In this document: positions 3,929 through 25,465 of the stretch, one piece after another
Numbering within the stretch: position 1 is the stretch's first letter
Layout of the letters: each line of letters starts with the position of its first letter
Assembly (NCBI RefSeq): GCF_041929145.1
Contig: NZ_JBHFNU010000005.1
Location: forward strand, 84,868 to 110,476
Reading direction: 5' to 3'
From: Aerosakkonema sp. BLCC-F183
GTDB taxonomy: Bacteria; Cyanobacteriota; Cyanobacteriia; Cyanobacteriales; Aerosakkonemataceae
Length of the DNA stretch: 25,609 nt
Translations under genes and position numbers: made by a program
Notes under the pieces: generated by a model
The model's database searches: none
Seen by the model: only the letters and a program-made list of their open reading frames with translations
What the model was told of the DNA's origin: nothing

Positions 3929-5053
3929 ATGGAAAAGAAACCACAGCAACCCCTGTATATATTAAAAAAAGCGCAGCCGCCAAATGCTGAAGCACCTACA
4001 CCCTTACCGCAGTTACAAGAAACAAATCAGCCTCTGAACGAACTTTTGGAAAAGCCGAAAGAGCAAAAACTCGACCTTTCGCTTAAGCTAAAAACCAAGC
4101 CGAAACTGAAGGAATCGAATCAGGTAAAAGAGAAGATAATTTATCCCAAAATAGAGAGGGCGAGATTGCGCCAGATGCGGTATTATGAAAGGGGAAAAAG
4201 ACAAGCTCCTCCCTCTCATCCTGTCGGGACTCCTCAAGATGACCAATTCCAGCACAGGGCGATTGGTTTGATTTCTGCGAAATATATACCTTCTACAGCA
4301 CATAAAAATAGCAAAGAATGGTTTAAAGGCATTCTGTTGACAGAGGACAATACGAGCGTTGATGCGGTAGTGTTGGGAAAAGTAAAAGCAGTGATTCAAT
4401 CACCCAAACTCGACCCAGAAAAAGAGCGTCTGTTTGTTGTCTATCCCAGAACTCCTCAAGTTAACAAACAGCCAAAAAAGGAAGAAACCGATAAAGAGCC
4501 GGGAAAATCTGATTTATCCGATGCAGAATCAGCAGTTGAAAAACCGCAAACTGAGGGTGAAATAAAGCAACCAACTAATGAAGCCAATCAAGCTAATGAA
4601 GCTAATGAAGCTAATCAAGCTAATCAAATTTCTGCCCCAGCGTCTGAGGATTCCCAAAATCAACGATCGCCAAAACTTCACGTACAAATATGCGGGATTT
4701 GGGAGCCGGAAATATTCCAACAAGGCATGGAACTTAAGCCGGATTATCCCATCGAACCGGATTACTTTTCTGTACATGGAGAAGTGATATTTCAAAATCA
4801 GGAAGAGCAGTGGATTTTGGTCAAAATTATCCAAGCTCCGAAACAACCAGATGGCAAACCGTTCTTTTTTAAATTGAAACTATGGGGGAATCTCGGCTGT
4901 AAAGCTTGCAAGCAACTTTGGTCTTTTAAAGTCAAGCGGGAAGGGGAAGATTTGAAAATTGTCAGTTCCGAAAAGATCGGGATTTTTGTATCGGATAGGA
5001 AAAAGTTTAAGGGCAAAGGAAAAAAACCAAAAAGTAAGCCGAGAAAAGGATAA
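3929..5053 (+). CDS. Hypothetical low-complexity Lys/Glu/Pro/Gln-rich protein with NEANQ tandem repeats and a basic C-terminal tail
   Basis: 374 aa with ATG at 3929. About 240 aa of predicted disorder are rich in PK/EK/PQ, with a 9-nt tandem repeat encoding NEANQANEANEANQANQ. The C-terminal ~130 aa look globular with Cys pairs (CGIW...GCKACK) and end in KGKGKKPKSKPRKG. No family was recognised. Confidence 0.45.
   Translation: MEKKPQQPLYILKKAQPPNAEAPTPLPQLQETNQPLNELLEKPKEQKLDLSLKLKTKPKLKESNQVKEKIIYPKIERARLRQMRYYERGKRQAPPSHPVGTPQDDQFQHRAIGLISAKYIPSTAHKNSKEWFKGILLTEDNTSVDAVVLGKVKAVIQSPKLDPEKERLFVVYPRTPQVNKQPKKEETDKEPGKSDLSDAESAVEKPQTEGEIKQPTNEANQANEANEANQANQISAPASEDSQNQRSPKLHVQICGIWEPEIFQQGMELKPDYPIEPDYFSVHGEVIFQNQEEQWILVKIIQAPKQPDGKPFFFKLKLWGNLGCKACKQLWSFKVKREGEDLKIVSSEKIGIFVSDRKKFKGKGKKPKSKPRKG
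4578..4627 (+). repeat. In-frame 9-nt tandem repeat (GCTAAT[G/C]AA x~5) inside the low-complexity CDS
   Basis: Direct reading: aagccaatcaagctaatgaagctaatgaagctaatcaagctaatcaa. Confidence 0.8.
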
Positions 5054-9138: not shown

Positions 9139-9187
9139 AAAGTCAAAAGTCAAAAGTCAAAAGTCAAAAGTCAAAAGTCAAAAGTAA
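9139..9187. repeat. Heptanucleotide tandem repeat (AAGTCAA x~7)
   Basis: aaagtcaaaagtcaaaagtcaaaagtcaaaagtcaaaagtcaaaagtaa immediately after the large-subunit stop codon. Heptamer tandem repeats are a known cyanobacterial genome feature. Confidence 0.9.
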
Positions 9188-10117: not shown

Positions 10118-10225
10118 AACCCCACCCCCAACCCCGACCCGTCCACGGGGAGGGGAGAAACAGGTGTAGGGGGAGGGGTGAAACAGGTGTAGGGGGAGGG
10201 GTGAAAGAGAGAGGGGCTTCAGGGG
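10118..10225. repeat. C-run/G-run region with a 23-nt direct repeat (GAAACAGGTGTAGGGGGAGGGGT x2), a potential G-quadruplex or long hairpin
   Basis: cccacccccaaccccgaccc followed by ggggaggggag and two copies of aaacaggtgtagggggaggggtga. It lies between the convergent fibrillin gene and the last cas-operon gene. Confidence 0.8.
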
Positions 10226-10285: not shown

Positions 10286-10906
10286 CTAATCAACGCATTT
10301 GACGCTTTTGATACTGCCATTTTTTAAGGCTGTTATTTTTACTTTTACGATCTGCCCTTGCTGGAGAGAACTCGCTTTTTTCGGTTCTTTTTCAGTCAAT
10401 TTAATCGCGCCTAATATTTGATATGTCACTTTATTACCTGCAATGCCAATAACTTGGGCATCTAAGATTTGATCGATCGCAAAATCTTGAGATTGCGTCA
10501 CTTGTAAAATTTCGGCTTGCCGAGTAGATTCTATGACAGGAGCGGTAATTTCGCCGATCGGTCCCGCTTCTTTGTAGTAGCGCATTAAGCGAATTGACCA
10601 CCCTAAAATTTGCAGGATAGCTGTTACATCATTTTGATAAAGTTGCAAATATTTGGTGCAAGTTCTTTCTATGCTATCATAATATCCAGATGTTTTTTGG
10701 CTATATCCGATTCTATTACCTTGGCGGGAAAGTGTTTGCAGATAACTAAAAAATTTCGTGCCGGCATTTTCGCGATCGCTATAAGCGCGAAGATATGCCA
10801 TCACTTTACCCAATTCATTTACATCAGTCTCTTCTTTGACCAATGTTTGAGCAATTCCGTGAGCAATTTGCCATTGAATTTCGGTTAAATCGGTGGTAGT
10901 AAACAT
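10286..10906 (-). CDS. Hypothetical protein, last gene of the type III-D-like cas operon (candidate III-D-specific accessory, Csx19-like?)
   Basis: 206 aa with ATG at 10906, immediately abutting the stop of the upstream Cas7 gene. It has a helical N-half and a beta-rich C-half (GQIVKVKITALKNGSIKSVKC). No family was recognised, and the assignment is by operon position only. Confidence 0.45.
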   Translation of the reverse strand: MFTTTDLTEIQWQIAHGIAQTLVKEETDVNELGKVMAYLRAYSDRENAGTKFFSYLQTLSRQGNRIGYSQKTSGYYDSIERTCTKYLQLYQNDVTAILQILGWSIRLMRYYKEAGPIGEITAPVIESTRQAEILQVTQSQDFAIDQILDAQVIGIAGNKVTYQILGAIKLTEKEPKKASSLQQGQIVKVKITALKNGSIKSVKCVD

Positions 10907-11947
10907 TTAATAAACTCCGTCTATAGGTTCTCTAGTTGTCGGCCATTGCAGAACTTGTTGTAACTCTTTCAATTGTTGAGATTGTACTAATTGGGTGGAT
11001 GCCGATCGCACGGCTTTTTGGATGAATTCCTGGAGGGAATTACCAGTCAGAGAAGGGGGTGAGGTGTTGTAATTGCAATAGCGATCGCGCCATTCTTTCT
11101 CTTTTTCAATCCGCTGAATTTCTGTTACTTCAACTACCATCGTTCCCATACCAATTGGTTTACCGCCTCCCACTTTTAAAGCAATGGGATTTTTACTATC
11201 TTGTCCTAACACAATCAACAGCGTTCCCAATTCGGCTAAACTTAAATTCCTAAATCCAATTTGGGTAGTAAATATCAATTCTTTTCCCGCTTGTTGAACT
11301 GGAATACCTTGTTGTCCTTTGTCAATCGATTTAACAAAATGGTAATAAAACTTGCGTCCAGCTATTCTTCCATTTATATAGTAGCCGGCACGTTGTTTTC
11401 TGGGTGCATAAAGTGAGGGCATAAATCCCACACTCCACTGTGCATTGTTGAGAATCGCATCAGAAAAGCGAATCAAACCTTGCCAATCCATTGCCCCAAA
11501 AACTTGACAAGCCGGACAAAGTTTAGTATTATCTTTACATTCCCGATAACCATTCGGAATTTGACTCTGTTCTGCCTTAGTTTTGCACAAACAACTGCGC
11601 GTAATTGCTTCATAAGTAGAACGCACAACGCCTTTAAGGGAACTTCCCGGAACGATCGACTGTCGATCGCGTCCAACGGCAGTTTTGATTAGGGGGATAT
11701 TTTTGGCATTTCCCGATAAGTCGCTACCCATTGCGACAACGCCAGAAGCGACAAAAGTAGCGGTTTTCACCGTTAAGCGCAGAAAGATTGTACCGCTAAT
11801 GCGATCGCTTTTAAACCGATCTTGTCCAATTGGTTTATCTCGCGGTGGCGGCTGACTGGGTAGAGAAATGAGTTGATAAGGTTTTGGATTAGCAGTTTCT
11901 GGTGCAGGATTAGGTTGAGGGCGTCGAATTGGTCGATTGTTAGTCAT
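10907..11947 (-). CDS. Cas7-group RAMP (Csm5/Cmr6-like) with Zn-finger insertion
   Basis: 346 aa. It has a RAMP N-terminus (PYQLISLP), a G-rich segment and the Cas7 signature IVPGSSLKGVVRS. A Cys cluster (CLCK...C...CPAC) is present. It overlaps the upstream gene by 4 nt. Confidence 0.8.
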   Translation of the reverse strand: MTNNRPIRRPQPNPAPETANPKPYQLISLPSQPPPRDKPIGQDRFKSDRISGTIFLRLTVKTATFVASGVVAMGSDLSGNAKNIPLIKTAVGRDRQSIVPGSSLKGVVRSTYEAITRSCLCKTKAEQSQIPNGYRECKDNTKLCPACQVFGAMDWQGLIRFSDAILNNAQWSVGFMPSLYAPRKQRAGYYINGRIAGRKFYYHFVKSIDKGQQGIPVQQAGKELIFTTQIGFRNLSLAELGTLLIVLGQDSKNPIALKVGGGKPIGMGTMVVEVTEIQRIEKEKEWRDRYCNYNTSPPSLTGNSLQEFIQKAVRSASTQLVQSQQLKELQQVLQWPTTREPIDGVY

Positions 11948-12459
11948 GGGGATATCTCAACAGTGAGAGCGATAAAATGTACCGTGGAAGTTTCGCGATC
12001 GATGAAATAACGTTGAGCTATTTTAACTTTGTTTGGATTATTCTTTTCATCCTTAATTATGGGATTGAGAGCGTCAGGTACAATGAATTTTTGGGGAAAC
12101 CGAGTTTCATCGGGACGATAAATGTAAGCAGGTCGTTGTTCTACTTTCCACTCTATCTTTTTATCTTGTTCCTTTTTTTTATCTCGTTCCTCATCAATAG
12201 AAGTGAAAGCAGAATCTTTACCAGTTATTGACAGCAATAATACTGAATAACCTTGACCTTGTTGTTTCCAACGCAATTCGCGATCGCAATTAAACATTTG
12301 TCCTTCTGGACTGGGAAATTCTTTTAATTCCTCTACAATTCCACTGACGCGATCTTGCCACCGAAGAAAGTAATAAGTAGGCTTTTTCGCAAATTTATCT
12401 AGCAATTTTCTGAGATCTTCAGATGAGTCAACTTGTTTAATACCTACAAAAGGATTCAT
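11944..12459 (-). CDS. Hypothetical protein embedded between Cas7 genes (candidate all1473-like III-D signature gene)
   Basis: 171 aa with ATG at 12459, coupled by 4-nt overlaps on both sides. No motif was recognised. Its position between two Cas7 genes matches the uncharacterised gene of canonical III-D loci. Confidence 0.45.
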   Translation of the reverse strand: MNPFVGIKQVDSSEDLRKLLDKFAKKPTYYFLRWQDRVSGIVEELKEFPSPEGQMFNCDRELRWKQQGQGYSVLLLSITGKDSAFTSIDEERDKKKEQDKKIEWKVEQRPAYIYRPDETRFPQKFIVPDALNPIIKDEKNNPNKVKIAQRYFIDRETSTVHFIALTVEISP

Positions 12460-13451
12460 GCTGCTGTCCCTTGCAATATTTCACACCAAGCTTCTACAGT
12501 TTGCGAGAACAATTCACGCACTTTATCGCTCCCTTCCCAACTCTGTTGCACGCCAAAATTAAACTCAATTGGTGTTGTTTTTGGTGATGTTTCTTTCAGA
12601 TCGTTAGGGGGAAAACCATAGCGGTTTCTTTCTTCATCTTCCAGAAACATTCCCGCACCCAATAAGGAAGTAAGCGGCCATTTTGTTTCTGTGCCGATCG
12701 CGCTAATTTGTTCATCTTTTATAATACAGCCAGGATATTGGACAACGGCTGAATTTAACTTAACTTCCACCAATCCCAAACCGCGAGATTTAGCGAAACC
12801 TAATCCAAACCAACCTTGATTTAAATCGCGCAATACTAAACCGATTAATCCTAATTGTGCAAGGGTAAAATTTCTGAGATGAATTTTGGTATGAAATTCT
12901 CCGGCGGTACAAACTTGAAAATTAAATGGCCCTACAGCGACCGAACCAAACACTCTGTCAATAGCTACGCCATTGCGTTCTTCAATTTTCAACAATTTGG
13001 GATTAACCGGATAAGCATCTTCTATTCTGACGCGACTGGCGATCGCAGTATTGCCAAACATTTGGGAAATAAAACAAGATTGCTTGTATAATTCCGCGCC
13101 GGGATGGGGATGATTTTTATTTTTCTTTTTCCAGTTGTCTAGGTAAAGATTGATGTTTTTTTGTTCGTCTTTGTCGTCGCTGAGAGGGTCGCTTGCCCAG
13201 ACAGTGGTAGAATTATTAGGACGGCGATCGCTTCCCACCGTCCGCACAATTCGTTCTGCATGGGCGCGAATAGCACCTTTGAGAGAACTTCCGGGTAAAT
13301 AAATTGTCCGTCCTCCGCCGTGATAGGTTTCCACAAATTCCATATCCGGTTTCGTAGGGTCAGCACCTTCTTTGCCAGATTTAATTAAGATAGGGCCAGC
13401 AGGTGTGATAGTTAATTCTATTGTACATTGATTGACAAATCGTTTAAACAT
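12456..13451 (-). CDS. Cas7-group RAMP (Csm3/Csm5-like)
   Basis: 331 aa with the Cas7 signature IYLPGSSLKGAIRAHAERI and a G-rich loop (GFAKSRGLGLVE). Confidence 0.8.
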   Translation of the reverse strand: MFKRFVNQCTIELTITPAGPILIKSGKEGADPTKPDMEFVETYHGGGRTIYLPGSSLKGAIRAHAERIVRTVGSDRRPNNSTTVWASDPLSDDKDEQKNINLYLDNWKKKNKNHPHPGAELYKQSCFISQMFGNTAIASRVRIEDAYPVNPKLLKIEERNGVAIDRVFGSVAVGPFNFQVCTAGEFHTKIHLRNFTLAQLGLIGLVLRDLNQGWFGLGFAKSRGLGLVEVKLNSAVVQYPGCIIKDEQISAIGTETKWPLTSLLGAGMFLEDEERNRYGFPPNDLKETSPKTTPIEFNFGVQQSWEGSDKVRELFSQTVEAWCEILQGTAA

Positions 13452-14319
13452 TGCTGTTTTCCTCGGCAGTGGTATTAGCAGACATAAAAGTTCTTAAATG
13501 GGTAATCAAAGCATTTGTCCATTCCTGTTTGAGGAAAGCAATTCTTTCTGGATAGCATGAGTAAATATCCATTTCTCCGTTAACCAGATTTTGCAGGTAA
13601 TTTAGTAATAACTCTGGATCGTCTTCTGCATCAAACCATTGCATTTCTTTAATATCCAATTTCACCACACCCAATCCGCGAGAACGTCCACCGCCTAACG
13701 GAATTTGTTCAGTTTCAAATTGGTGCAATCCGATGGTTAATAAACCTAATTCCCAAGCTTCGGCGTTTTCAACTACTGCTTTAAACTCAAATTGCGTTCC
13801 TGCCGGTACAACTTGAAAATCGTATAATTTCGCATCAGCAGCAGTTTCGGTATCGCGATCGATCGCAACTCCATCTCGTTCTTGATATTGTCCAAACCAA
13901 CTATCTAGTAATACCGTTAAATCTCGTACTTGAAATTTACTGGCGATCCAAGGAGAACCGAATAAGCGAGAAACTAAATCGGTTTCTTTTAAAATTGCAG
14001 TGGTGAGGTCAAAATCATCTTTGTTTTCGTCCTTAAGTTGCTTGATTTCATCAGCTTTTAGCGACCATTCATCCTCTACGGCGGGATTGGCGACTAATTT
14101 GCGATCGCTTCCCACAATCCCGCGCAGGAAGCTTTCTAAACGCGATCGCAAAGCACCTTTAAAACTCGACCCCGGAATTAAAGGTCGTCCTACCGCATCT
14201 TTAATTACTGGTAAATCCGAACCAATTGGTTCTGTGGAACGTCCCGCGCCAATTCGCAAAGCGGTGATAGTTGTGAGAGTTCCGGTGATTTCCAAACGAC
14301 TTTTGAAAGTATCAAACAT
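13444..14319 (-). CDS. Cas7-group RAMP (Csm3/Cmr4-like backbone subunit)
   Basis: 291 aa with the N-terminus LEITGTLTTITALRIGAGR ... PLIPGSSFKGALRSRLESFL and a C-terminal G-rich loop GGGRSRGLGVVKL. A SD-like AGGTGGA precedes the ATG at 14319. Confidence 0.85.
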   Translation of the reverse strand: MFDTFKSRLEITGTLTTITALRIGAGRSTEPIGSDLPVIKDAVGRPLIPGSSFKGALRSRLESFLRGIVGSDRKLVANPAVEDEWSLKADEIKQLKDENKDDFDLTTAILKETDLVSRLFGSPWIASKFQVRDLTVLLDSWFGQYQERDGVAIDRDTETAADAKLYDFQVVPAGTQFEFKAVVENAEAWELGLLTIGLHQFETEQIPLGGGRSRGLGVVKLDIKEMQWFDAEDDPELLLNYLQNLVNGEMDIYSCYPERIAFLKQEWTNALITHLRTFMSANTTAEENSNV

Positions 14320-14339: not shown

Positions 14340-15500
14340 TTACTTTTTAATGCCTTCTCTTTTGTAAATATACTCATGTGTTCCGTAGTATCGCAGAGAT
14401 AATCTTCCTCCATCTGCAACTTTGCAGCTAACTCGTCGAGTCTGAGCCGTAATGTTGATATGGTCGATATTTGTATTCTGATATCTACGAAGCCTCAGAA
14501 TATCATCGTCTTTCAAAGCGCTGATCCCATCTCCATGTTTGAATAATAGGTAAGCTGCTCTAGCTAGCCTTTCTTGCAACTGAATCCTTTCCTGAATGTC
14601 TAAAGTATTTTGGTAATCTTTGCAAAAGCTTTGTTCATAATCCAATTTAGGAAATTTGACTAAATCTTCCGAAAGTAACTCGTCTTTGCATTGATTCCAA
14701 ATCAATTTTCCCCATGTCGATAAAGTCATTTCTTTGCCATCAACCAAAACCCATTCTTCCGGGACTTTCTTTGCTTCTTCCCAAGATGTAGGAATTTCTC
14801 CAACATCCATCATTGCTAGTTGTACTTTGTATGGCTCAACCTTGGAGCGATCTACCTTTACAGGAAGTTGTGGAATTTTGATTACTTCATTCGATCCCTC
14901 AAAAACATAGACAATTTCATTAGCATAAAACATTCCAATGGTATTGAAGTAGCCTTGCAAAGCTTTGAATCCACCAACTAAATTGAAATAAATCTGGTAT
15001 TTGCTACTTTTAGAAGCAATAATTATTTCTTGCAGTGTGGGAATTAATTTTGCCATTCCCTCTATAAAGGTAGCGCTACTGGCGATGGACAGTCCAGGCT
15101 GTATACAAGTACTGGTGTTATTCAATCCGTTACTTTTCAAAAATGACTCTACAATGTTTGCAGTAACTCTAGCTTGTGCTGTGTCAGTAGCAACTAATAA
15201 ATGAGTATCTTCTGTACCCTGTTCTAGTTTATTATTGTACAAACCATAGATGCCATTCAGTTCCGCGCTCAACTCTCGGATTTCTTCAAGCTCGGTATCG
15301 TCATTGTAAAGCTTTTCTTCCGCCCTATTCTTCAACTTTTCAATAATATGGGAAATATCCTCATGATATTTTTTTATTTCATCAACAGTATAATTTGCAG
15401 TTTGCTGTAGGCACTTAGACCAGCTATCTGGATCGATATCGCGGTCAATTTGATTGGTCAATAAACTTGTACCGACAGTGGAAATTACGAGTCGAGGCAT
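14340..15500 (-). CDS. CARF-domain protein with C-terminal putative HEPN-like domain (Csm6/Csx1-type cOA-activated effector candidate), embedded in the effector operon
   Basis: 386 aa with ATG at 15500 and AAGGAG upstream. The N-terminal Rossmann strand MPRLVISTVGTSLL and the later NLVGGFKALQGY motif match the CARF core signature (hhhhS.G.S ... TGG[TF]K). The C-terminal region carries RYYGTH (R-x4-H), which is compatible with a HEPN RNase motif. Confidence 0.55.
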   Translation of the reverse strand: MPRLVISTVGTSLLTNQIDRDIDPDSWSKCLQQTANYTVDEIKKYHEDISHIIEKLKNRAEEKLYNDDTELEEIRELSAELNGIYGLYNNKLEQGTEDTHLLVATDTAQARVTANIVESFLKSNGLNNTSTCIQPGLSIASSATFIEGMAKLIPTLQEIIIASKSSKYQIYFNLVGGFKALQGYFNTIGMFYANEIVYVFEGSNEVIKIPQLPVKVDRSKVEPYKVQLAMMDVGEIPTSWEEAKKVPEEWVLVDGKEMTLSTWGKLIWNQCKDELLSEDLVKFPKLDYEQSFCKDYQNTLDIQERIQLQERLARAAYLLFKHGDGISALKDDDILRLRRYQNTNIDHINITAQTRRVSCKVADGGRLSLRYYGTHEYIYKREGIKK

Positions 15501-15534: not shown

Positions 15535-15951
15535 CTAAATTTCACCTTTATTTTTGTATACCAGATAGCGTGCGCCATAACCAAGATAGCGACGGGTTAG
15601 CTCTAGCCAAATTTGGTTATATTCATCAACTTCAGCCGCTTTTGCTATTTCTTTAGCAGCCTCCTTAATGTCTTTATCGATGTTACGAATAATTTTTGCT
15701 GCTAAAGATTGTTCGCCTTTACCCCACTTTTTGTCACGCCCTACCTGATAACGCAAAAAGTTTTTGATTACTTCTGTGCTTTCAGTTGTATCAGCAACTC
15801 TTAGAAGATTACGAAATTGGGATTCTTGTAAATCACCATAAGAGCTTTTATCATCTAAAGCATCTTGGATCTTAGTCACTAGCTTATCCTCAGCTTGGCG
15901 AATACCTTTTTGAATCTTGAGTTGTTTTTGCGGATCGAATGGTTCGTTCAT
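15535..15951 (-). CDS. Cas11-like small subunit (Csm2/Cmr5-type, alpha-helical)
   Basis: About 138 aa from the ATG at 15951, which forms an ATGA overlap with the Cas5 stop (the track start at 15990 is TTG). It is small, Lys/Glu-rich and helical, and sits directly after Cas5 as in III-D loci. Confidence 0.5.
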   Translation of the reverse strand: MNEPFDPQKQLKIQKGIRQAEDKLVTKIQDALDDKSSYGDLQESQFRNLLRVADTTESTEVIKNFLRYQVGRDKKWGKGEQSLAAKIIRNIDKDIKEAAKEIAKAAEVDEYNQIWLELTRRYLGYGARYLVYKNKGEI

Positions 15952-17222
15952 ACAGGTTCCTCCTGAAATACAAGATGAAATTCGTTGCAAACTTCAATTT
16001 GACCGAAGCCTTCACAGGTGCGATCGCCGACACCTACAATCTCTAAATTTTCTAATGCTTTCATCCAAGCATCTCGTTGTGCAGTGCTAAATAAATACAC
16101 CGCTCCTTTATTAGTTATCAGTTCCACATCTTTCATCAATCCCCAAGCAGAATTCCAGCCAGAACGATAGTCATAGCTACTATACGCTGCTTCAAGTTTT
16201 AAGGTGGAATCTTTAACGCCAGTAAACTTTTTTAGCATTTCTTCCGAAATTACAGTGGTACCCTGCCAGTTATCGGTCAAAATCGCCTCAGAGTGTAAAT
16301 CCAAAGAAAAGTAGGTGCGATCGATCGCCAATTCTTTTAAAGGACTACCAAATACTCTCCATTCCTTCCAACGTTGTCCAAGTTTTTCATTAAAATTCTC
16401 GACTTTTGCAACTACATTGGGTTTAATATCTACAATTTTAGCTTGAATTTTGACTTTTCCCAACCCGCGTGAAGTAGAACCACCTAAGCGGAAATTTTCA
16501 CTGCGATCGAGAATAAATTGCGTCAGAGAATCTGCCAAACTATCTTCTACCAAAATTGAGCCGCAGTAAATAACAGGTTTGGGCTTTTTACCTTTCGATT
16601 CAGATTCATTCAGAACTTCTATGCTGTAAAGTATTTCCTCTTCAGCCGTAGCCAGTCTTCGATTAATACCTACTCGTGTTAATAGGCGTTTATTAACACT
16701 ATGAGCGTGATATTTATCATTGAGTTTGCTGTAAAAACAACTATGTGCATCGACTCGCCCTCCGTCTGTTGGACAATTGGGATCGTAGGGATAACCGTAA
16801 CCTTCAGCACAGAAGCGATCGATCAGAGTATCGAAAACGCCGTTACTTCCTTTTTTAGACGTAAACCCAGAGCTATTTTTAGAACTCAGCGCAGTAGTAG
16901 GTAGCACCCTAACTTCTGGTTGTAATATAGTTTTATCCTTTATTTCTATAGTTGCAGGATAAGCATTTTGAAAAATTGCGGGAGTATCATCAAGAAATAA
17001 AGCCTGAAAATCACCGCCATTTTCTGAGAAATCTTGGCTCCATTCCTGCTGTTGTTCGCTTTGTTGTAGCTGACGATATTTTTGCAAAATTTGAGCGGCA
17101 ATTGCACCCCGAATTACGCTTCCGGGAATATAACTTTCTACTTCGCTAATTGAACCGCCTGGTTTCTGGCGTGCTATTGCCAGAGGAGATAAAGCTTTAA
17201 TTTCTAATAGAATGCGCTTCAT
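15948..17222 (-). CDS. Cas5-group RAMP (Csx10/Csm4-like)
   Basis: About 424 aa from the ATG at 17222, which forms an ATGA overlap with the upstream stop (the track start at 17252 appears to be TTG). It has LEIKALSPLAIARQ...YIPGSVIRGAIAAQ, reminiscent of the Csm4 L.L.F.SPLHIG...IPGS.IKG pattern, and a C-terminal G-rich loop GGSTSRGLGKV. Confidence 0.65.
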   Translation of the reverse strand: MKRILLEIKALSPLAIARQKPGGSISEVESYIPGSVIRGAIAAQILQKYRQLQQSEQQQEWSQDFSENGGDFQALFLDDTPAIFQNAYPATIEIKDKTILQPEVRVLPTTALSSKNSSGFTSKKGSNGVFDTLIDRFCAEGYGYPYDPNCPTDGGRVDAHSCFYSKLNDKYHAHSVNKRLLTRVGINRRLATAEEEILYSIEVLNESESKGKKPKPVIYCGSILVEDSLADSLTQFILDRSENFRLGGSTSRGLGKVKIQAKIVDIKPNVVAKVENFNEKLGQRWKEWRVFGSPLKELAIDRTYFSLDLHSEAILTDNWQGTTVISEEMLKKFTGVKDSTLKLEAAYSSYDYRSGWNSAWGLMKDVELITNKGAVYLFSTAQRDAWMKALENLEIVGVGDRTCEGFGQIEVCNEFHLVFQEEPV

Positions 17223-17959
17223 TGCACCCTTCCTTTTGCCAAGAATTGCCAAACAGTTTCATCCACTTGAATTTCAGGTAAATCCCAATGTAACCAACCT
17301 AAACCCGCAGATTTACTGCCGCCCAGTGCGTGAATATGCCGCAAACCAGCCCAAATCAGCGCTTTAGCATAATCAGGTCGATCGGGTGTTACGGGTGTTA
17401 GGCTTGGTTGGATGTGAATATTACCCTCAAATCTGAGTTTAAGATTTACGGGAGAGGTTTCCAAAAAGTAAAGTTTTTTCTCCTCCGCAGTGCGGCGACG
17501 GCGATTAATCGTCACACCCGGACGGATAACTTCAGGTAAATTTTCAGGGTCTTCTGTGCAAACTAAATCATCAAAGATTACTCGTGATGGTAAAACCGGA
17601 TCGCCAAATATTTGGCTAATTAAACAGTGATATGTTTCATTATACCCTGCAACTTGATACTCGCTACGACAAAATTCGCTCGGTGAACTTTCTCGCCGTA
17701 AAACCATTTTTTTAGGGCTAGGAGATTTACAAATTGCCCAACCCAAAGCCCTTGCAAATTTTTCGCATTCATGGCGCAGGCGACCCTTGACTTGAGAGCC
17801 AGGAATTAGCAGATTTGTTTGGGAGTCTCGAACAATCGGTTTATCTGCTAGGGAACTAGAAGAACCACCAGCACCTACACACAAAGCCGTATCAATTATA
17901 GCAGTAATTTTGTGTGTTTCTACTTCAATTAAATTTGATAAATTTCTGAGAAATATCAT
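17219..17959 (-). CDS. Cas7-group RAMP, small (Csm3-like)
   Basis: 246 aa with CVGAGGSSS...LLIPGSQVKGRLRHE. Its start overlaps the cas10 stop (TGATG). Confidence 0.75.
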   Translation of the reverse strand: MIFLRNLSNLIEVETHKITAIIDTALCVGAGGSSSSLADKPIVRDSQTNLLIPGSQVKGRLRHECEKFARALGWAICKSPSPKKMVLRRESSPSEFCRSEYQVAGYNETYHCLISQIFGDPVLPSRVIFDDLVCTEDPENLPEVIRPGVTINRRRRTAEEKKLYFLETSPVNLKLRFEGNIHIQPSLTPVTPDRPDYAKALIWAGLRHIHALGGSKSAGLGWLHWDLPEIQVDETVWQFLAKGRVQ

Positions 17960-20346
17960 CAGTCAGCCTCCTGAGTTACAAGTCTTTCCTGGGATGTTCC
18001 AGAATCTTCAGATGTCTCAATGAAGTCATAGAGGTCTACCAGTTCTCGCCAAATTGTTTCGTAGGTTGTCTCTCCTGGTTCTAGAATGGACATCCAAGGA
18101 GCTAGATTACCCTTATTATTTTGCTCTTTTGGTTGACACCAAGCTTCTTCAAACTTTTCTTTTAATTCTTGTTGTCCTTGCTGGAGTCGAACTCGAAAAT
18201 AACGGTAGTTAAGAATAGCGGTATGCTTGCCCCGTTCCAGTAGATCGCGAATTTGGTACAGTTGCGATCGCGGAAATTTTGCCTTGTTCAATGCGTCGAT
18301 TGTCTCAATCAATCCTCCTAATTCATGCAAAGTATAAGGGGCCGCATATAGCTTTAAAGTAGGAGTGTGTATGTCCTTAATTTTCACCTCTGGATTTTTA
18401 ATTAATGCCTGCTTTCTGAACTCGTCGATATCGGATGAAATCATCGTTACAGCTTTCAGCACTAAAAAATCAACCGTACCGCCACAATAGCCATATTTTC
18501 TCAACTTCTTTGCCTTGCTTTTAGCAGATTTAAGTAACTGCTCATAAAGGTTTTTTGCGTAGTAAATAGGAGTGTTGTAAGCTGTAATCAACACGCCGCT
18601 CGATATACTTAGTTGACACTGAGAAAGTTCTGCTTTTTCGCTTGAGTAGCGGTGGCATTTTTTGAGGTCAATTGGCTTTTCAGATTGCTTAGTATGATAG
18701 TTGCCTTGAATTTCTACACCTGCCAGAGATACTTGTTTGAGGAGGATTTTTTCAAACTGCTCGCCAATCATTTTAGCGATCGCCAATGCCTGAGAAGCTG
18801 GCACAATCAAAATAATATCATCTCCGCCAATCGTAATAATTTCAAAGGGATGAATGAAATCACCATCCTGCCATCTTGAATCTGGATCTTTAATTCCTCT
18901 AATCTGGCGGGGATGAAGATTATATGCTAAGGCTTGATAAACAGCATACTCAGTTGCGTTGGCCACATCTTCGCTAAACTCTTTGTATTTTTCTGGCGTA
19001 GTGCATATTTTCTGAATAAATCCTCCCATGTTGTTGCCATCAGCATAAATATAGGCAACAAAACCATTGCTGACATTGCCTAAATGCGTTAATGATTTAG
19101 CAATTTTAACATCATCCTGTTGGCAGGTTTGATAATATTGCTGACATTGCTCGGAATTTTTCTGTAAAAATTCCTCGAATTTGTCAACCCAACCTTCTAT
19201 TATTCCAGGTTGCCATTCTAGCCCGGTATTTTTGTACCATTCTGGTGTTTTAGCTAATCCCGTTTTAGCGCGATCGCCTACTCGTCTTTTACGTGCAGAA
19301 ACTTCAGAAAATTGAGATTCGCTGGGCAATAAAGGTGGCTGAACGATCGCCACAGCAGATCTGCGATCGCCTTCATCCCTTCTCAAATAAGGATGAGTTT
19401 CAAACATCGGTGGGTAGCGGCGACTGGGGCGATCGGGAAAATCATTTCCACTGCGGCGTTGATTAAACAGAATCGCCAATTTAGTTGTTAATTCATTAAA
19501 ACTTTTCCGGTTAGCAAAAGCTTCTTCAACAGATACCGGATCGCTAATACATGGCTCATTTGGCTTTTTCTCCAAGTTGCCAAAGTAAGCCCGAACCAAT
19601 GGTTTATTATATTCTTGACGATACCGCTCTAACCAGAAATTATTTTCAATGGGGTCTTGTAGCAGACCAAATCGAGTTTCCATTAACCTAAAGGTATCGG
19701 CGACTGCACAGGAATTAGCTGCTAAAGTTTCCTCGGTGTAACGCTTTTCAATAGCATTAGCTAAGTCATCTGCAAAAGCCGCTGGGCAAAACGCCAGAAT
19801 ATTACCGCCAGTTGAGTAGATGATTAGTTCAGGAATTAACGCATCTGAAAATTTTGGTTCATTAGGAAAGTTGTCGTTAAGCCATGTTCTTACTTCTTGA
19901 CACTGGATAGTGTAGTTGTAGAGAATTGATTCAGGGTTTTTGTTAAAAAAAGCAGGCAAATCGCTCAGATTGATTCGATCTAGTAGTGCAGAAGCACCCC
20001 GAATATCTGGGAGTTTTGCCGCTTCAAATACGTATTGTTTAATCTTGGTTGCACCGCCGTAAACCAAGCCTATTCGAGAGTTCCAAAGGATAGAATGCTG
20101 TTCGGCCAATAACTTTAACTCATCTAACGTTTTGGGAAACTTTAGAGTTTCTAATTGCTTGACTTGTTCGAGGAGCGATCGCATTTTTTCTGGAATATCT
20201 GTCCCAGCGTGCAATGCTTCCCGCATCTGGTGCAATTCCTTGATATCAAATTGCGGTTGGCGCTGTTCTCCCCAAGCCAGACACCAGGCGATTCCAACGA
20301 AAAGCTTTCCTGATGCTGTCTTTATGTCTTGTTGAAAGTTACTCAT
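17959..20346 (-). CDS. cas10: Cas10 large subunit of a type III CRISPR-Cas effector complex (III-D-like, no recognisable N-terminal HD domain, intact GGDD cyclase motif)
   Basis: 795 aa with ATG at 20346. The palm/cyclase motif FEIITIGGDDIILIVPASQALAIA is present. No H..HD..D motif is found in the first ~150 aa. It is the first gene of a coupled RAMP operon with the order cas10-cas7-cas5-cas11. Confidence 0.85.
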   Translation of the reverse strand: MSNFQQDIKTASGKLFVGIAWCLAWGEQRQPQFDIKELHQMREALHAGTDIPEKMRSLLEQVKQLETLKFPKTLDELKLLAEQHSILWNSRIGLVYGGATKIKQYVFEAAKLPDIRGASALLDRINLSDLPAFFNKNPESILYNYTIQCQEVRTWLNDNFPNEPKFSDALIPELIIYSTGGNILAFCPAAFADDLANAIEKRYTEETLAANSCAVADTFRLMETRFGLLQDPIENNFWLERYRQEYNKPLVRAYFGNLEKKPNEPCISDPVSVEEAFANRKSFNELTTKLAILFNQRRSGNDFPDRPSRRYPPMFETHPYLRRDEGDRRSAVAIVQPPLLPSESQFSEVSARKRRVGDRAKTGLAKTPEWYKNTGLEWQPGIIEGWVDKFEEFLQKNSEQCQQYYQTCQQDDVKIAKSLTHLGNVSNGFVAYIYADGNNMGGFIQKICTTPEKYKEFSEDVANATEYAVYQALAYNLHPRQIRGIKDPDSRWQDGDFIHPFEIITIGGDDIILIVPASQALAIAKMIGEQFEKILLKQVSLAGVEIQGNYHTKQSEKPIDLKKCHRYSSEKAELSQCQLSISSGVLITAYNTPIYYAKNLYEQLLKSAKSKAKKLRKYGYCGGTVDFLVLKAVTMISSDIDEFRKQALIKNPEVKIKDIHTPTLKLYAAPYTLHELGGLIETIDALNKAKFPRSQLYQIRDLLERGKHTAILNYRYFRVRLQQGQQELKEKFEEAWCQPKEQNNKGNLAPWMSILEPGETTYETIWRELVDLYDFIETSEDSGTSQERLVTQEAD

Positions 20347-20662: not shown

Positions 20663-21220
20663 CTATTGAGGTTTGAGAAAGAGGTTTAACTCCAAATGGA
20701 AGATGTTGCGAATCTTAAGCAACAAACATACACCAGCGTGCGGAATCTTTGCCATATCCCGCAGAGTCGGACATAATCCATTTACAGCCACATTTTCAAC
20801 TGCTGAACTTATAATTTCAACAGGCTGCTTCTCCGATTTGTTGGTAGGGTGGTTTGTAGGATGGAATTCCAGGCTTTGCGGGTGATGGAGTGGCGCTTTT
20901 GCTTGTGAAGTGAGCAAGATGCCCAAATCTGTAGTCGCCCATGTTGGCTGCCCTATAATGGGTGTAGCCGCGAGAACAGCTTGCTTCCCCTCTCCAAAAA
21001 CTAAAATCGTTGATGGAGAAAAAACCTTTGAGATTGAGCCAGGATTGTACGAAAGGCTCAAATTACCTAACAACCCACAGGTTAAATTGCTGGATTGTTG
21101 ATTTTGTAAGGTTTGGAGGAAACAAGCTGTTCTCGCTGGGCTTTGAGTAGTTAATTGAGTTTGGAAAGTTATCTCGCTTAAGGAAGCGTTTTTTGTCAAC
21201 TTTGGTATTGCTTGAGGCAT
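20663..21220 (-). CDS. Hypothetical Ser/Thr/Gln-rich protein upstream of cas10
   Basis: 185 aa ORF with ATG at 21220, no clear SD and low complexity (HPTNHPTN). It could be non-coding leader or promoter space instead. Confidence 0.25.
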   Translation of the reverse strand: MPQAIPKLTKNASLSEITFQTQLTTQSPARTACFLQTLQNQQSSNLTCGLLGNLSLSYNPGSISKVFSPSTILVFGEGKQAVLAATPIIGQPTWATTDLGILLTSQAKAPLHHPQSLEFHPTNHPTNKSEKQPVEIISSAVENVAVNGLCPTLRDMAKIPHAGVCLLLKIRNIFHLELNLFLKPQ

Positions 21221-21444
21221 ACTTATACCTACAATGAAAGGATAGATTATAGTATAACCTAGCTCTACAGGGAAAACTTGTCTTTTCCTATATGTTCAAA
21301 AACCGTAATTTATTTTCCAAAATATTAATACCAAGCAAGTCATGGCTGGATACCCGATGGTTAGGTTGACTTCTGGATCAAATTTGTGTATACTTTATAA
21401 GTCAAATATCAGAATAATAGAAAATGCCGTTTTTCAATGGTTAG
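21221..21444 (+). promoter_or_regulatory. AT-rich CRISPR leader-like region preceding degenerate repeats (also contains the divergent promoter space)
   Basis: About 220 nt of AT-rich sequence (ttattttccaaaatattaatacc..., tgtgtatactttataagtcaaatatcagaataatag) lie immediately upstream of the first repeat-like unit. Confidence 0.4.
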
Positions 21445-21550
21445 ACAAAAACCTAAAAACTCCCCGTAAGGGGATTGAAACAGGCATTTCTCACTGAAAT
21501 TTGATTAGTTGACTAAGTTCTCAACTACTTCCCCGCAAGGGGACTAAAAC
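21445..21550 (+). CRISPR. Minimal or degenerate CRISPR array with two repeat-like units and one ~32-35 nt spacer, and a possible third decayed unit at 21655-21684
   Basis: Unit 1 is ...AACTCCCCGTAAGGGGATTGAAAC and ends at 21481. Unit 2 is GTTCTCAACTACTTCCCCGCAAGGGGACTAAAAC (21517-21550). Both have a CCCC-N4-GGGG hairpin and a 3' ...[T/C]T[G/A]AAAC handle. From memory they closely resemble the 37-nt cyanobacterial type III-D repeat GTTCAACACCCTCTTTTCCCCGTCAGGGGACTGAAAC. A third fragment reads TTCCCCAAATGGGGAC. Confidence 0.5.
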
Positions 21551-21684: not shown

Positions 21685-22281
21685 TTACGAACTCGCCATC
21701 GCACCTTGCTGCAACTCTCTCACCACCCATTCCAATTCCTCCACCATCCAACTGCTACTCAACTGGCGGTAAATCTGCAATTGTTCTTGATAAAGCCATA
21801 ACACCCCTTCCTTACCGCCTCGGAAATAATGCCAAATTTCTTCGCCAAATTGCCTAAAATTAACCAACATAGTCCGCGCATTGTGCAACTTATCCGCCAG
21901 CATCACCCTTTGCACTGGCGGACAAGCATCTCGTAGCTGTTGGAGATATTGCTGTTTGTGTTCTTTCCAAGTCGGATATAAACTCGGTTCTGGCTCGGTG
22001 CAACCTTCTATAATATGGAAAACGCGATCGCCAAATCGCTGCAAAATTTCCGCCTTCGTTACTTCTCCCCCTCGGTCTTCCAGCGCATCGTGCAATAAAG
22101 CGGAAATTGCCTCATCTTCATCTCCTCCATCTTCCAACACCAAAGCCGCTACGCTCAACAAATGGGCAATATAAGGAGTACCTGTAATTTTCCGTTGTTG
22201 GTCGCCATGAAGTTGCGCCGCATATACCAACGCTTCCTGAAAACGCGAAGTTAAAATTGTCAAACACCGTTCATTCTTCAT
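21685..22281 (-). CDS. Small alarmone hydrolase-type HD-domain protein (RelA/SpoT hydrolase fold, Mesh1/SAH-like)
   Basis: 198 aa with ATG at 22281. The HD motifs LHGDQQRKITGTPYIAHLLSVAALV and AISALLHDALEDRGG match the (p)ppGpp-hydrolase HD_4 signature. It overlaps the upstream WYL gene by 11 nt. Confidence 0.8.
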   Translation of the reverse strand: MKNERCLTILTSRFQEALVYAAQLHGDQQRKITGTPYIAHLLSVAALVLEDGGDEDEAISALLHDALEDRGGEVTKAEILQRFGDRVFHIIEGCTEPEPSLYPTWKEHKQQYLQQLRDACPPVQRVMLADKLHNARTMLVNFRQFGEEIWHYFRGGKEGVLWLYQEQLQIYRQLSSSWMVEELEWVVRELQQGAMASS

Positions 22282-23686
22282 AAATTTTCCATTCTTTTTC
22301 GACTTCTCTCTTCGCCTGTTCTCGTAATTCCACAGGGAGGAGAATTTCTACATTCGGTCGCCACGCACGCAAGCGCTGCATTACGTTAGGATCGCCTTGG
22401 CGATATTGCGCTTGGTAATAAGCATCTTGGGGAGAACATTTGCGCCAAATATTTAACATCTTTTGTTGTTGTTCTCCCTTTAAGTTCTGCCGAATTAATC
22501 GTTCTACTTCTTGATATGCCACTCGCGCAAAGGTAGCATGGCGCATAGTATTGCGGATGTAGCGATTATCCCACTCGCGATCGAACCTCAATAGTAGCAG
22601 TTGTGGGGGTTGATAGTAATCAAAACCCCAAACTTCTGCGATCGCTAATTGGATATCATCGGGAATAGGCAGAGTCTTCTTTTGATATCGCCGTTTCAGC
22701 GCCACCGGAACTTGCGGATCGTCCCAACTCAAAGGGATCGAATCCTGAATGCGATCGAGCCGATAATTGCGAAAATCTAATTTTCCCGATTCGTCTTGCG
22801 GAACTTCGCCAAACGCACACAAATACGGCCCTCTCTGATAATAATAAATGCAAACGGGATAAACTACCACCGACAAAGTTGTTTGCCATACCGCACTTTC
22901 ATAACTTAACAAAATCGGCGGTACAACTTCCTGTTGCCAAAGTTCCCGCAGTTGTGCTTGCCATTCTTCGACACGATCGATCGAGTCTTGCGGAATCACA
23001 TATTCCAGATGGATAAAAAAGCGCTGCTGACCATTCAATCGCGTGGAAAGATTATCTGCGATCGCAGCCAAATCCGGTTGCGTGAGAAAATCCAAATTGT
23101 AAGCTATCAGACGAGAATCTGATTTTTGGATCGAACTCGGCGTCCGTGGATATTTCTTAACCCGATAATACCGATTTCCTTGGCGTTTCAGCCACCCGAT
23201 TTCTATCAAAACTTGCAAATCGCCATAAAGCGATCGTCTTGTCAAGCCAAACAAACGAGTATCGTGCAACAATTCTTTAAGGTTATCCGGTAACAAATGA
23301 TGTTCCCGCAAAGATTGTTCAAACGATCGCTCTTTTTCCTGTACTTCCGGCTTCCCTAATTCCCCTTTCCACTTTGACTGAGTTAAATTGAAATCAGAAC
23401 CAAATAACCAAGCAGCAACAGTTTTCGCACAACGGCATTTCGGGTCGTGCAACGCCGGAATTTCTTCTTCTCTAGTATGAGTCGCAGTAAAAAAAGCATC
23501 TCGCCATTCAGGATAAGTAAAATTTTCCGGCAAATTCAACTTAATGCCGGCTTCCCCATACAGAAAGTGCAACCACACCCACAACCGCACCGCCTGTAGC
23601 AATCTTTGTTTTAAATCTCCCCGCGCCAGCCATTGCAGCAGTTCCACACGAGGAGGTTCATTCCAAAAGGGGTTGACCGTTTCCAA
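22271..23686 (-). CDS. WYL-domain protein with winged-HTH (putative ligand-sensing transcriptional regulator associated with the type III locus)
   Basis: 471 aa with an apparent TTG start. A wHTH-like segment RLFGLTRRSLYGDLQVLIEIGWLKRQGNRYYRV is present. The WYL-domain core YPVCIYYYQRGPYLCAFGE...GKLDFRNYRLDRIQDSIPL matches the P..L.y..g.WYL.a....R.FRLdRI consensus. Confidence 0.6.
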   Translation of the reverse strand: METVNPFWNEPPRVELLQWLARGDLKQRLLQAVRLWVWLHFLYGEAGIKLNLPENFTYPEWRDAFFTATHTREEEIPALHDPKCRCAKTVAAWLFGSDFNLTQSKWKGELGKPEVQEKERSFEQSLREHHLLPDNLKELLHDTRLFGLTRRSLYGDLQVLIEIGWLKRQGNRYYRVKKYPRTPSSIQKSDSRLIAYNLDFLTQPDLAAIADNLSTRLNGQQRFFIHLEYVIPQDSIDRVEEWQAQLRELWQQEVVPPILLSYESAVWQTTLSVVVYPVCIYYYQRGPYLCAFGEVPQDESGKLDFRNYRLDRIQDSIPLSWDDPQVPVALKRRYQKKTLPIPDDIQLAIAEVWGFDYYQPPQLLLLRFDREWDNRYIRNTMRHATFARVAYQEVERLIRQNLKGEQQQKMLNIWRKCSPQDAYYQAQYRQGDPNVMQRLRAWRPNVEILLPVELREQAKREVEKEWKIYEE

Positions 23687-23799: not shown

Positions 23800-24156
23800 A
23801 TGTCAGCCATTCAATTACAACTGTTTCGGGAGCAAATCCAGTCAGGTCTGGCCTACCAACACCTGCACATCCAAATCAACACACCGGATGGACTGATTGC
23901 ACCAGCCGACCTGAAAAATTTATCTCTACCGGAGGAAATGGTCTGGAGTCAAGGCGTTGTCATTGAAGGTAAAGCGCCAATTTGGTTGTACGCCTATTTA
24001 GTTCACGCTTGTCACCCCGCCGCTTGGGTAGCTTGCTTCGACCCCCGCTTAGAAGGTGCAGTTATAATTGCTACACACAGTCGCCAAGTCGCACTCGGAG
24101 ATATTCTCAAACTCAACTTACCCGCAGCCATATTTCGCAAAACAACAGGTACGTAG
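23800..24156 (+). CDS. Csx3-like (Crn3-type ring nuclease candidate) stand-alone domain protein
   Basis: 118 aa with ATG at 23800. It is paralogous to the N-terminal ~115 aa of the 24533 gene (GKAPIWLYAYLVHACHPAAWVACFDPRLEGAVIIATHS versus GIAPTWLYANLVERCWQAPWIGCYTAPKNQIVVIQS). The stand-alone plus NTPase-fused pair next to a type III locus is the arrangement reported for Csx3 in cyanobacteria. Confidence 0.4.
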   Translation: MSAIQLQLFREQIQSGLAYQHLHIQINTPDGLIAPADLKNLSLPEEMVWSQGVVIEGKAPIWLYAYLVHACHPAAWVACFDPRLEGAVIIATHSRQVALGDILKLNLPAAIFRKTTGT

Positions 24157-24532: not shown

Positions 24533-25465
24533 ATGAATACGATCGCCTTACAAAAACAAGTTGAACTGCAAGTCACCGAACTGAAAACCGCACAAGGAAG
24601 TTATCAAACTTTGGCGATTAGCTTAGTGATGTTCCAGGAACTAATAAAAACTGATGTACTCGCACAATTGAAACTTCCTGACGAACTAGACTTGAGCAGA
24701 GAAGTAATTTTATACGGTATAGCTCCTACTTGGTTGTATGCCAATTTAGTAGAACGCTGTTGGCAAGCGCCTTGGATAGGATGCTATACAGCGCCAAAAA
24801 ATCAAATTGTTGTAATTCAAAGTCGGATATCAACAATAAGTATAGGCGATGCGATACCTGTATTGCTTAACAACATTCCTTGTCCGGCAATTTTAATAGG
24901 TGGTTCGCCTGACAGCGGCAAAAGCGTTTTATCGAATGCTTTGCGTTTTAATTTGATGAAAACCGGAGCATTCAAACGAGTATTTGTACATCGCGCTTCT
25001 TGGGATGGTGAGGGAAATTGGGTTTACGAAGTAGCGAATCGGGATTTAGCTAAAAAGCTGATTGTAGAAAACGAGTTTCGATTGCACGAAAATCCCGAAA
25101 CGGCGAAGTTAATACCGAAATTCTTTAAATATCATAGCTCGGCGGTACAGAATTTGCGGGAAGTTGTCGATTTGGTTTTGGTTGATGTGGGTGGTAAACC
25201 GCAGCAAGAGAAAGCGCCTCTGGTCGCACAATGTACGCACTATATAATTATTAGTAAAGAATCAGATGAGATTCCCAAATGGCACGAGCTTTGTCATCCA
25301 ACTTTGCAGCCGTTAACGGTGATTCACAGCGTCCGACAAAAACGAGAAGAAGTTTGGCAAAAACAACCTTTTTTGGAAATCATCGACGGACGCTGGTGCG
25401 AAGGTGAAATCCAGTCTGTTCCCGATATCTTGCTGGAAAATGTGCTTAGGGTTTTGCACGCCTAG
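24533..25465 (+). CDS. Csx3-like N-terminal domain fused to a P-loop NTPase (Csx3-AAA-type accessory protein)
   Basis: 310 aa with ATG at 24533 and AAAGGAA upstream. Residues ~1-115 are paralogous to the 118-aa ORF. Walker A ILIGGSPDSGKSVLSNAL and a Walker-B-like hydrophobic strand DLVLVDVGG are present. Confidence 0.5.
   Translation: MNTIALQKQVELQVTELKTAQGSYQTLAISLVMFQELIKTDVLAQLKLPDELDLSREVILYGIAPTWLYANLVERCWQAPWIGCYTAPKNQIVVIQSRISTISIGDAIPVLLNNIPCPAILIGGSPDSGKSVLSNALRFNLMKTGAFKRVFVHRASWDGEGNWVYEVANRDLAKKLIVENEFRLHENPETAKLIPKFFKYHSSAVQNLREVVDLVLVDVGGKPQQEKAPLVAQCTHYIIISKESDEIPKWHELCHPTLQPLTVIHSVRQKREEVWQKQPFLEIIDGRWCEGEIQSVPDILLENVLRVLHA

Follow-up and report, generated by a model that had tools for sequence, protein, structure and literature searches.

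Type III CRISPR systems of subtype III-D are characterized by csx10, csx7 and often csx19, and by a Cas10 that usually lacks the HD domain (Makarova classification; Hoikkala et al. 2024). According to published surveys, a recognizable HD domain is present in 3% of III-D Cas10s and the subtype acts mainly by cyclic oligoadenylate (cOA) signaling (see also PMC6013697). In the III-Dv system of Synechocystis sp. PCC 6803, Cas10 is reported to lack a large part of its N-terminus and to have a disrupted HD pocket; the complex makes cOA in response to target RNA, this cOA activates Csx1, and palm mutations abolish the synthesis (PMC11026444). Here, a locus of Aerosakkonema sp. BLCC-F183, a filamentous cyanobacterium, was compared with these systems. 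It lies in a stretch of 25,609 nucleotides (nt) of contig NZ_JBHFNU010000005.1 (positions 84,868 to 110,476), hereafter the window, whose own coordinates are used throughout. The subject is a cas10 gene at 17959-20346, together with its operon and accessory genes. The explanation preferred here, at a probability of about 0.82, is that a cyclase-competent, nuclease-less III-D Cas10 signals through cOA to a Cami1-like effector and that the system is reset by Csx3.

The Cas10 protein and its N-terminus

The cas10 open reading frame (ORF) occupies the minus strand without interruption between 20346 and 17959 and encodes 795 amino acids (aa). Its product matched Pfam family PF22335 (Cas10/Cmr2 palm-2; E 8.8e-18, 65.1 bits against a cut-off of 27) over residues 430-614 and NCBIfam model TIGR02577 (Cas10/Cmr2; 161.1 bits against a cut-off of 79.4) over residues 94-609. 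These matches confirm the identification as Cas10 made in an earlier note on this DNA, in which the strand was not given. The NCBI entry for the identical sequence is named 'type III-B CRISPR-associated protein Cas10/Cmr2 [Aerosakkonema sp. BLCC-F183]'. The domain layout below is based upon family matches, an alignment to 31 homologues that are 60-75% identical (the close-homologue alignment), an AlphaFold2 (AF2) model built on that alignment, and a full-length alignment with relatives.

17959-20346, minus strand: cas10, the type III-D effector's large subunit, HD-less and predicted to be cyclase-competent (PF22335, TIGR02577, fold matches)
20077-20346, minus strand: residues 1-90, small helical N-terminal domain (AF2 model; WCLAWG at residues 21-26 invariant)
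19657-20076, minus strand: palm 1, residues about 91-230, with invariant GGATKIKxYVFE...RGAS and GGN (close-homologue alignment; TIGR02577 match starting at 94)
19072-19656, minus strand: inter-palm domain, residues about 231-425, zinc-finger cysteines gone (full-length alignment with relatives)
18502-19071, minus strand: palm 2, residues about 426-615, with D436 (YADGNNMGG), GGDD and SxGV...LLKSAK (PF22335, motif conservation)
17962-18501, minus strand: C-terminal helical domain, residues about 616-795 (weak TIGR02578 Csm1 match at 578-723; helical in the AF2 model)

The overall fold resembles that of solved Cas10 structures. When the model was searched against the PDB with Foldseek, the first matches were to Synechocystis III-Dv Cas10 (8s9u, 8s9v and 8s9t, chain C; E 1.6e-7 to 5e-7), followed by III-A Csm1 chains and, lower, by Cmr2 chains; no nuclease fold was among the matches. 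Searches of PDB sequences were less informative, with phmmer returning a spurious Jumonji match only and a profile of 32 homologues giving weak Cas10 matches only. The Aerosakkonema protein has in common with HD-bearing Cas10s (III-A Csm1; III-B Cmr2, e.g. P. furiosus 4w8y) the two palms, the GGDD, the C-terminal helical domain and the fold. Unlike them, it carries a stub of about 90 aa without metal ligands in place of an N-terminal HD nuclease with H/HD/H/H/D ligands. Identity to III-Dv Cas10 (8s9t/8s9u/8s9v/8s9x chain C) is only 15-16%, and that protein is shorter (575 aa versus 795 aa).

No 'HD' dipeptide occurs anywhere in the 795-aa protein and no DxD or DxxD pattern within its first 150 residues, in agreement with the earlier note, which had reported no H..HD or D..D pattern in the first ~150 aa. 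The three histidines of this region (39, 46 and 84) are not conserved among the 31 homologues. Residues 1-90 hold no invariant histidine or aspartate in the close-homologue alignment, their sole strongly conserved features being IAWCLAWG(D/E) and Pro52, and the H...HD...H...H...D ligand set that Cas10/Cas3-type HD nucleases carry in a domain of at least 150 aa is absent. The first palm-1 strand (IGLVYGGATKIK; IGLVYGGATKIKQYVFE) comes after only about 90 residues, while relatives with HD motifs have 150-290 residues before palm 1, and the ORF cannot be extended upstream because it already uses the first start codon that follows a stop. In a tblastn search whose queries were N-terminal domains taken from eleven longer relatives, none of the six frames of the window gave a match below E 0.1, so the window contains no HD gene that is split or frameshifted. 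At E<=10, Pfam had no HD-like match for residues 1-129, and eight long relatives were likewise without a Pfam HD family. Pfam therefore cannot recognize even the motif-complete HD domains of this lineage, and HD status was judged by motif inspection and hhalign instead.

Comparison with longer relatives revealed a graded series. Four of them (P0229, P0257, P0261 and P0262) contain the motifs ADHxL, HD(L/F)GK, GHxxRG and RHH, and three of the four also (C/A)HADxxS..DR, where P0261 reads ALADTAS. A larger, intermediate group retains DHAL, H(D/E)xP, AHLAAS (Asp lost) and HPL, and aligned to the HD-bearing group by hhalign at a probability of 97.3% (E 2.6e-11) with motifs in register. In the joint alignment the IAWCLAWG of the Aerosakkonema clade falls on SAIAYCLGY, the helix that follows the motif I 'DH' in longer relatives. 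At the 'DH' position itself Aerosakkonema Cas10 has S-G, the histidine being retained in 9/32 clade members. Overlaying 'ELHQMREALHAG' on LLRLAALSH(D/E)xP by eye, a register not produced by MAFFT, places H-A at the HD-dipeptide position in Aerosakkonema Cas10 and mostly N-E in the family. With hhalign, only the 13-column WCLAWG helix of the stub aligned to the intermediate group (probability 68%, E 4.6e-5), and the match of the stub to the HD-bearing group was not significant (probability 0.2%). It is plausible from these alignments that the stub is what is left of an HD domain's first helices, its ligands having been lost. This is a model that we infer, because the stub was unaligned to the HD-bearing group and aligned through one helix only to the intermediate group.

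Prediction of the N-terminal structure, proposed in the earlier note, placed residues 12-90 in a bundle of four to five short helices with a predicted local distance difference test score (pLDDT) of 78-92. A stub so well folded in the model, with a WCLAWG invariant enough to imply selection for some function, could be taken to mean that Cas10 retains a cryptic, highly divergent metal-dependent nuclease site, here or elsewhere, and still cuts single-stranded DNA (ssDNA). This is highly improbable given the lack of any invariant histidine or aspartate in residues 1-90 and the residues now at the 'DH' and HD-dipeptide positions; furthermore, the five-motif HD set of the relatives does not fit in 90 residues.

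The cyclase site is conserved. IGGDDIIL occupies residues 506-513, with GGDD at 507-510 (nt 18817-18828), so that the earlier description of this palm motif as intact was correct. D436, GGDD 507-510, S582 (in the SxGV strand) and K609 (in LLKSAK) are invariant in the close-homologue alignment, as are the palm-1 motifs GGATKIKxYVFE, RGAS and GGN, and the palm-2 motifs are also kept in the most distant relatives examined. Mutated palm-2 residues, which the earlier note had named as grounds for abandoning its prediction, were looked for and none was found. Judged by its motifs, the protein is probably cyclase-competent, nothing having been found that would abolish activity.

Subtype III-D operon and predicted signaling genes

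The csx10 gene is the signature of subtype III-D, in which csx19 is frequent and not obligatory. Downstream of cas10, the operon contains the following genes in addition to the effector gene listed further below.

17219-17959, minus strand: Csx7-like repeat-associated mysterious protein (RAMP) of the Cas7 family, 246 aa (PF03787 E 4e-19; TIGR02581 79 bits, below cut-off)
15948-17252, minus strand: csx10, Cas5-like, 434 aa (TIGR02674 441.2 bits against a cut-off of 177.3)
15535-15990, minus strand: 151-aa protein, by position the presumed small subunit (Cas11) (no Pfam or NCBIfam match)
13444-14319, minus strand: csx7 (Cas7), 291 aa (TIGR02581 256.1 bits against a cut-off of 108)
12456-13451, minus strand: second Csx7-like RAMP, 331 aa (PF03787 E 3e-27; TIGR02581 97 bits, below cut-off)
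11944-12459, minus strand: conserved operon protein of 171 aa, an unconfirmed csx19 candidate (no significant Pfam or NCBIfam match)
10907-11947, minus strand: TIGR03986-like RAMP, 346 aa (TIGR03986 140.8 bits, cut-off 161; Cas7-11e 84.8 bits)
10286-10906, minus strand: 206-aa protein, last gene of the operon (no Pfam or NCBIfam match)

The locus is III-D and not III-B, because Csx10 and Csx7 scored above their curated cut-offs and the Cmr models far below theirs. Within the operon Cmr4 (TIGR02580) reached only 25-40 bits against a cut-off of 87 and Cmr6 (TIGR01898) only 20-22.5 bits against 51.1, and the NCBIfam scan gave no matches to Cmr1, Cmr3 or Cmr5. The public 'III-B' label reflects the TIGR02577 match only. 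Neither the 171-aa nor the 206-aa protein had an NCBIfam or Pfam match to csx19 (the all1473 family); both are positionally conserved in relatives, a gene for 156-163 aa standing at the place of the former in related loci L001-L003 and a gene for ~210 aa ending the operon there too. In the same three loci a gene for 136-171 aa holds the position of the 151-aa protein.

Homologues in Argonema, Nostoc and an Oscillatoriales genome are surrounded by genes in the order seen in Aerosakkonema. After the small gene, related III-D operons have a variable slot, which may encode a 381-aa Cas_APE2256 protein, may instead encode a 423-aa MJ1674-like protein, or may be empty. In the Aerosakkonema locus, L003, L004 and L010 the slot is filled by a Cami1-like CARF-RelE gene, in L001 by the gene for a 423-aa protein with an MJ1674_2nd domain (11436-12707), and in L002 it is empty. 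The locus thus resembles canonical III-D in its Csx10 and Csx7 above cut-offs, HD-less Cas10 and intact cyclase, and is unlike it in that csx19 was not identified by family match and the zinc-finger cysteines of the clade are lost. It differs from III-Dv, whose Cas7, Cas5 and Cas11 subunits are fused and whose effector is Csx1, in that every RAMP subunit has a separate gene, as in canonical III-D, and the in-operon effector is Cami1-like.

The genes with likely roles in signaling are the following.

14340-15500, minus strand: Cami1-like CARF-RelE effector, 386 aa, inside the effector operon (PF09651 E 1e-27; AF2; Foldseek)
23800-24156, plus strand: csx3/crn3, 118 aa, cyclic tetra-adenylate (cA4) ring-nuclease family (PF09620 E 1e-32; TIGR02579 91.9 bits against 55.4)
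24533-25465, plus strand: Csx3 fused to a P-loop (AAA-like) domain, 310 aa (PF09620 E 2e-18, 66.3 bits against 21)

Cami1 is a cA4-activated CARF-RelE mRNA interferase that acts in a ribosome-dependent manner and is common in type III loci. The CARF domain of the 386-aa protein matched Cami1 by sequence at E 5e-9, and its C-terminal 167 aa had no Pfam or PDB sequence match and were resolved by fold search alone. An AF2 model made from a 30-homologue alignment (pLDDT 89.6) found as its best Foldseek matches Cami1 in the apo form and in the cA4-bound form on the ribosome (8phb, 8phj; E 1.5e-14, ~392 columns), followed by CARF ring nucleases, and the C-terminal part gave weak matches to toxin-antitoxin module chains (6af4; ParDE 8c24). 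The model has the Cami1 architecture of an N-terminal CARF and a C-terminal RelE-fold domain. Identity to Cami1 is 17-20%, with a structural match over the entire length. The protein is therefore described here as a Cami1-like CARF-RelE effector, predicted from model and fold similarity to cleave mRNA in a ribosome-dependent manner.

Both Csx3 genes lie upstream of the cas10 operon on the plus strand. The product of the longer one scored 46.7 bits with TIGR02579, below the cut-off of 55.4, matched PDB AfCsx3 at E 1.6e-5 and contains a Walker A motif, GGSPDSGKS. Crn3 is specific for cA4, which it cleaves, and occurs fused to an AAA ATPase (PMC12409355).

Because a Cami1-like effector gene lies in the operon and Csx3/Crn3 genes lie nearby, a pathway can be proposed from target RNA to Cas10 cyclase, cA4, Cami1-like arrest and Csx3 reset. 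A CRISPR RNA (crRNA)-loaded Csx10/Csx7 complex would bind a complementary foreign transcript, upon which the Cas10 palms would polymerize ATP into cOA, most likely cA4, with D436 and GGDD 507-510 as catalytic residues; this activity is predicted from the family and from the III-Dv homologue. Binding of cA4 would activate the in-operon Cami1-like protein to cut ribosome-bound mRNA and arrest translation, as Cami1 does, and the two Csx3/Crn3 proteins, assigned by family, would degrade cA4 and so reset the system. Cas10 itself, with a helical stub of ~90 residues without metal ligands as its N-terminus, would contribute no ssDNase. By analogy, III-Dv is a direct experimental precedent for this mechanism. 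The earlier prediction of a signaling-dominant system with cOA and no ssDNase gains support from the invariant palm-2 residues, the missing HD ligands, the III-Dv precedent and the Cami1-like and Csx3 genes.

Several observations weigh against this explanation. The Cas10 model is of moderate overall confidence (mean pLDDT 67.6), with residues 588-677 unreliable. The homology of the stub to an HD domain is weak, resting on the single 13-column helix. The choice of cA4 as the most likely messenger is drawn from the families of the neighboring genes. The window yielded only two repeat-like units and no full CRISPR array. Finally, Aerosakkonema Cas10 has lost, along with its clade, all four cysteines of the zinc finger at residues 323-353 (19288-19380 in the window). 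HD-bearing and intermediate relatives read RRCxxCxRR...CExCxRK here and the Aerosakkonema clade RRDEGDRR...FSEVSARK, so that CxxC...CxxC is replaced by D..D...S..S/A in the full-length alignment. A four-cysteine zinc finger between the palms is common, not universal, in Cas10.

The lost cysteines and the low-confidence segment leave room for a structural defect, and together with the lack of a full array they could be read as signs of a cyclase that is silent despite its GGDD, protection being afforded only by Cas7-mediated cleavage of target RNA. That outcome is very unlikely. More than 30 sequences of 60-75% identity share the palm-2 motifs without change and distant relatives keep them, which implies purifying selection, a cOA-responsive effector is encoded inside the operon with ring nucleases adjacent, and the III-Dv homologue is an active cyclase.

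The WYL-HD_4 pair and other features of the window

Two further genes lie between the cas10 operon and the Csx3 genes.

21685-22281, minus strand: HD_4 protein, 198 aa, HD phosphohydrolase of the RelA/SpoT-hydrolase type (PF13328 E 8e-23; N-terminal region of TIGR00691)
22271-23686, minus strand: CRISPR-associated WYL-domain protein, 471 aa (TIGR03985 294 bits; PF13280 WYL)

The end of the WYL gene overlaps the HD_4 gene by 11 nt. The earlier note had pointed to a concentration of CARF, Csx3 and HD accessory genes around cas10. The Cami1-like CARF gene and the two Csx3 genes fit this description; the HD gene is of the RelA/SpoT type, not a Cas3/Cas10-type nuclease HD, and is tied to WYL more than to cas10. 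In a survey of 80 genome loci holding an HD_4 homologue (L004-L083), a WYL gene adjoined HD_4 in 43, in nearly all cases directly upstream and nearly all of them cyanobacterial; in 18 WYL-HD_4 loci a Csx3-AAA-like or AAA-like gene was also nearby. Homologues of reverse transcriptase or Cas1 were present in 23 of the 80 loci, immediately downstream of HD_4 in about a dozen, and in the single locus inspected closely the WYL-HD_4 pair was directly followed by a reverse transcriptase and Cas1. HD_4 is thus CRISPR-linked through WYL and the adaptation module, as its pairing with WYL and its reverse transcriptase-Cas1 neighbors indicate. A III-D cas10 lay within 10 kb of HD_4 in only 6/80 loci. Replacement of the Cas10 HD nuclease by HD_4 in trans was considered and rejected, since HD_4 belongs to the RelA/SpoT hydrolase class and is linked to WYL and reverse transcriptase-Cas1, not to cas10.

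The same pair raises the question of whether Cas10 makes a messenger other than cA4 (cA3, cA6, SAM-AMP or a new one), with the HD_4 hydrolase as its dedicated degrader. A RelA/SpoT-type HD_4 gene is co-transcribed with a CRISPR-associated WYL gene beside cas10, the pair is conserved in cyanobacteria, and some III-D systems have messengers that are still unresolved (PMC12669027). This possibility is nevertheless unlikely, as cA4 specificity is described for both the Cami1 and the Csx3/Crn3 family, no CorA, NrN or SAM-lyase family match was found among the window ORFs scanned, and the WYL-HD_4 pair was so seldom close to a III-D cas10.

No specific description of a module of WYL, HD_4 and reverse transcriptase-Cas1 was found in the searched literature. 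A speculative and rather doubtful suggestion is that the WYL-HD_4 pair and the divergent Csx3-AAA gene form an undescribed module for sensing and turnover of nucleotide signals in cyanobacterial type III systems. If so, HD_4 would hydrolyze a Cas10 product or an alarmone and WYL would sense it, and the sole 'HD' function left in an HD-less III-D system would be messenger control and not DNA cleavage.

Between the HD_4 gene and cas10 lie two repeat-like units.

21444-21481 and 21517-21550, unstranded: two CRISPR-repeat-like units of 34-38 nt around a 35-nt spacer (repeated core, Rfam)

The palindromic core that they share, TCCCCTTRCGGGGA, is found at these two places only in the window, where 0.01 occurrences would be expected; both units gave full-length, sub-threshold matches to Rfam CRISPR-DR families, and repeats with the same core are located downstream of the operon in L003. 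The two units could be an array remnant or a one-spacer mini-array. An ORF of 185 aa in the same interval (20663-21220, minus strand) had no Pfam or NCBIfam match and is unlikely to be a genuine gene.

At the edge of the window, a gene with a PD-(D/E)XK nuclease domain (192-674, plus strand) overlaps a convergent gene for a D12-class N6-adenine DNA methyltransferase (646-1506, minus strand), and the two may be a restriction-modification pair. Short tandem repeats were also observed at 4575-4627 (9-nt units within ORF 3929-5053), at 9139-9187 (AAAGTCA heptamers just past a molybdopterin dehydrogenase gene) and at 10147-10215 (three 23-nt units containing GGGGAGGGG, just downstream of the last operon gene).

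Distribution of HD-less Cas10s and implications

Homologues with the same architecture number more than 1000, and the Aerosakkonema protein is one member of this large cyanobacterial family. A word-indexed search found 1073, and the best 120 of these are 665-821 aa long (nearly all 760-820) with PF22335 as the sole domain. A profile search of 1.84 billion representatives yielded 2151 Cas10 relatives. In most of the listed 50%-identity representatives with a palm-1 motif, that motif is preceded by 8-110 residues, and in a minority by 139-293. A Cas10 without HD and with intact GGDD is already known and is the documented default of III-D, and since this is the published norm for the subtype, the loss of HD is not peculiar to the Aerosakkonema locus.

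One related III-D operon, with a Cas10 60% identical, was found together with HD_4, Csx3 and Csx3-AAA genes (L016, contig JBLNEP010000015.1) in a metagenome-assembled genome labeled Actinomycetota. Its cyanobacterial-like III-D content suggests a binning error or horizontal transfer.

Four minor points go beyond the literature read: HD decay is graded among relatives, the clade has lost its zinc-finger cysteines, the operon encodes a Cami1-like effector, and WYL is paired with HD_4. For annotation, the outcome is corrective, placing in III-D a locus publicly assigned to III-B. The series among relatives, which starts with a complete HD domain and passes by way of decayed motifs to a stub of 90 residues, could serve for studying how the nuclease arm of type III systems is lost. 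For Aerosakkonema the outcome is descriptive, the likely effect of the locus being translation arrest via the in-operon Cami1-like effector.

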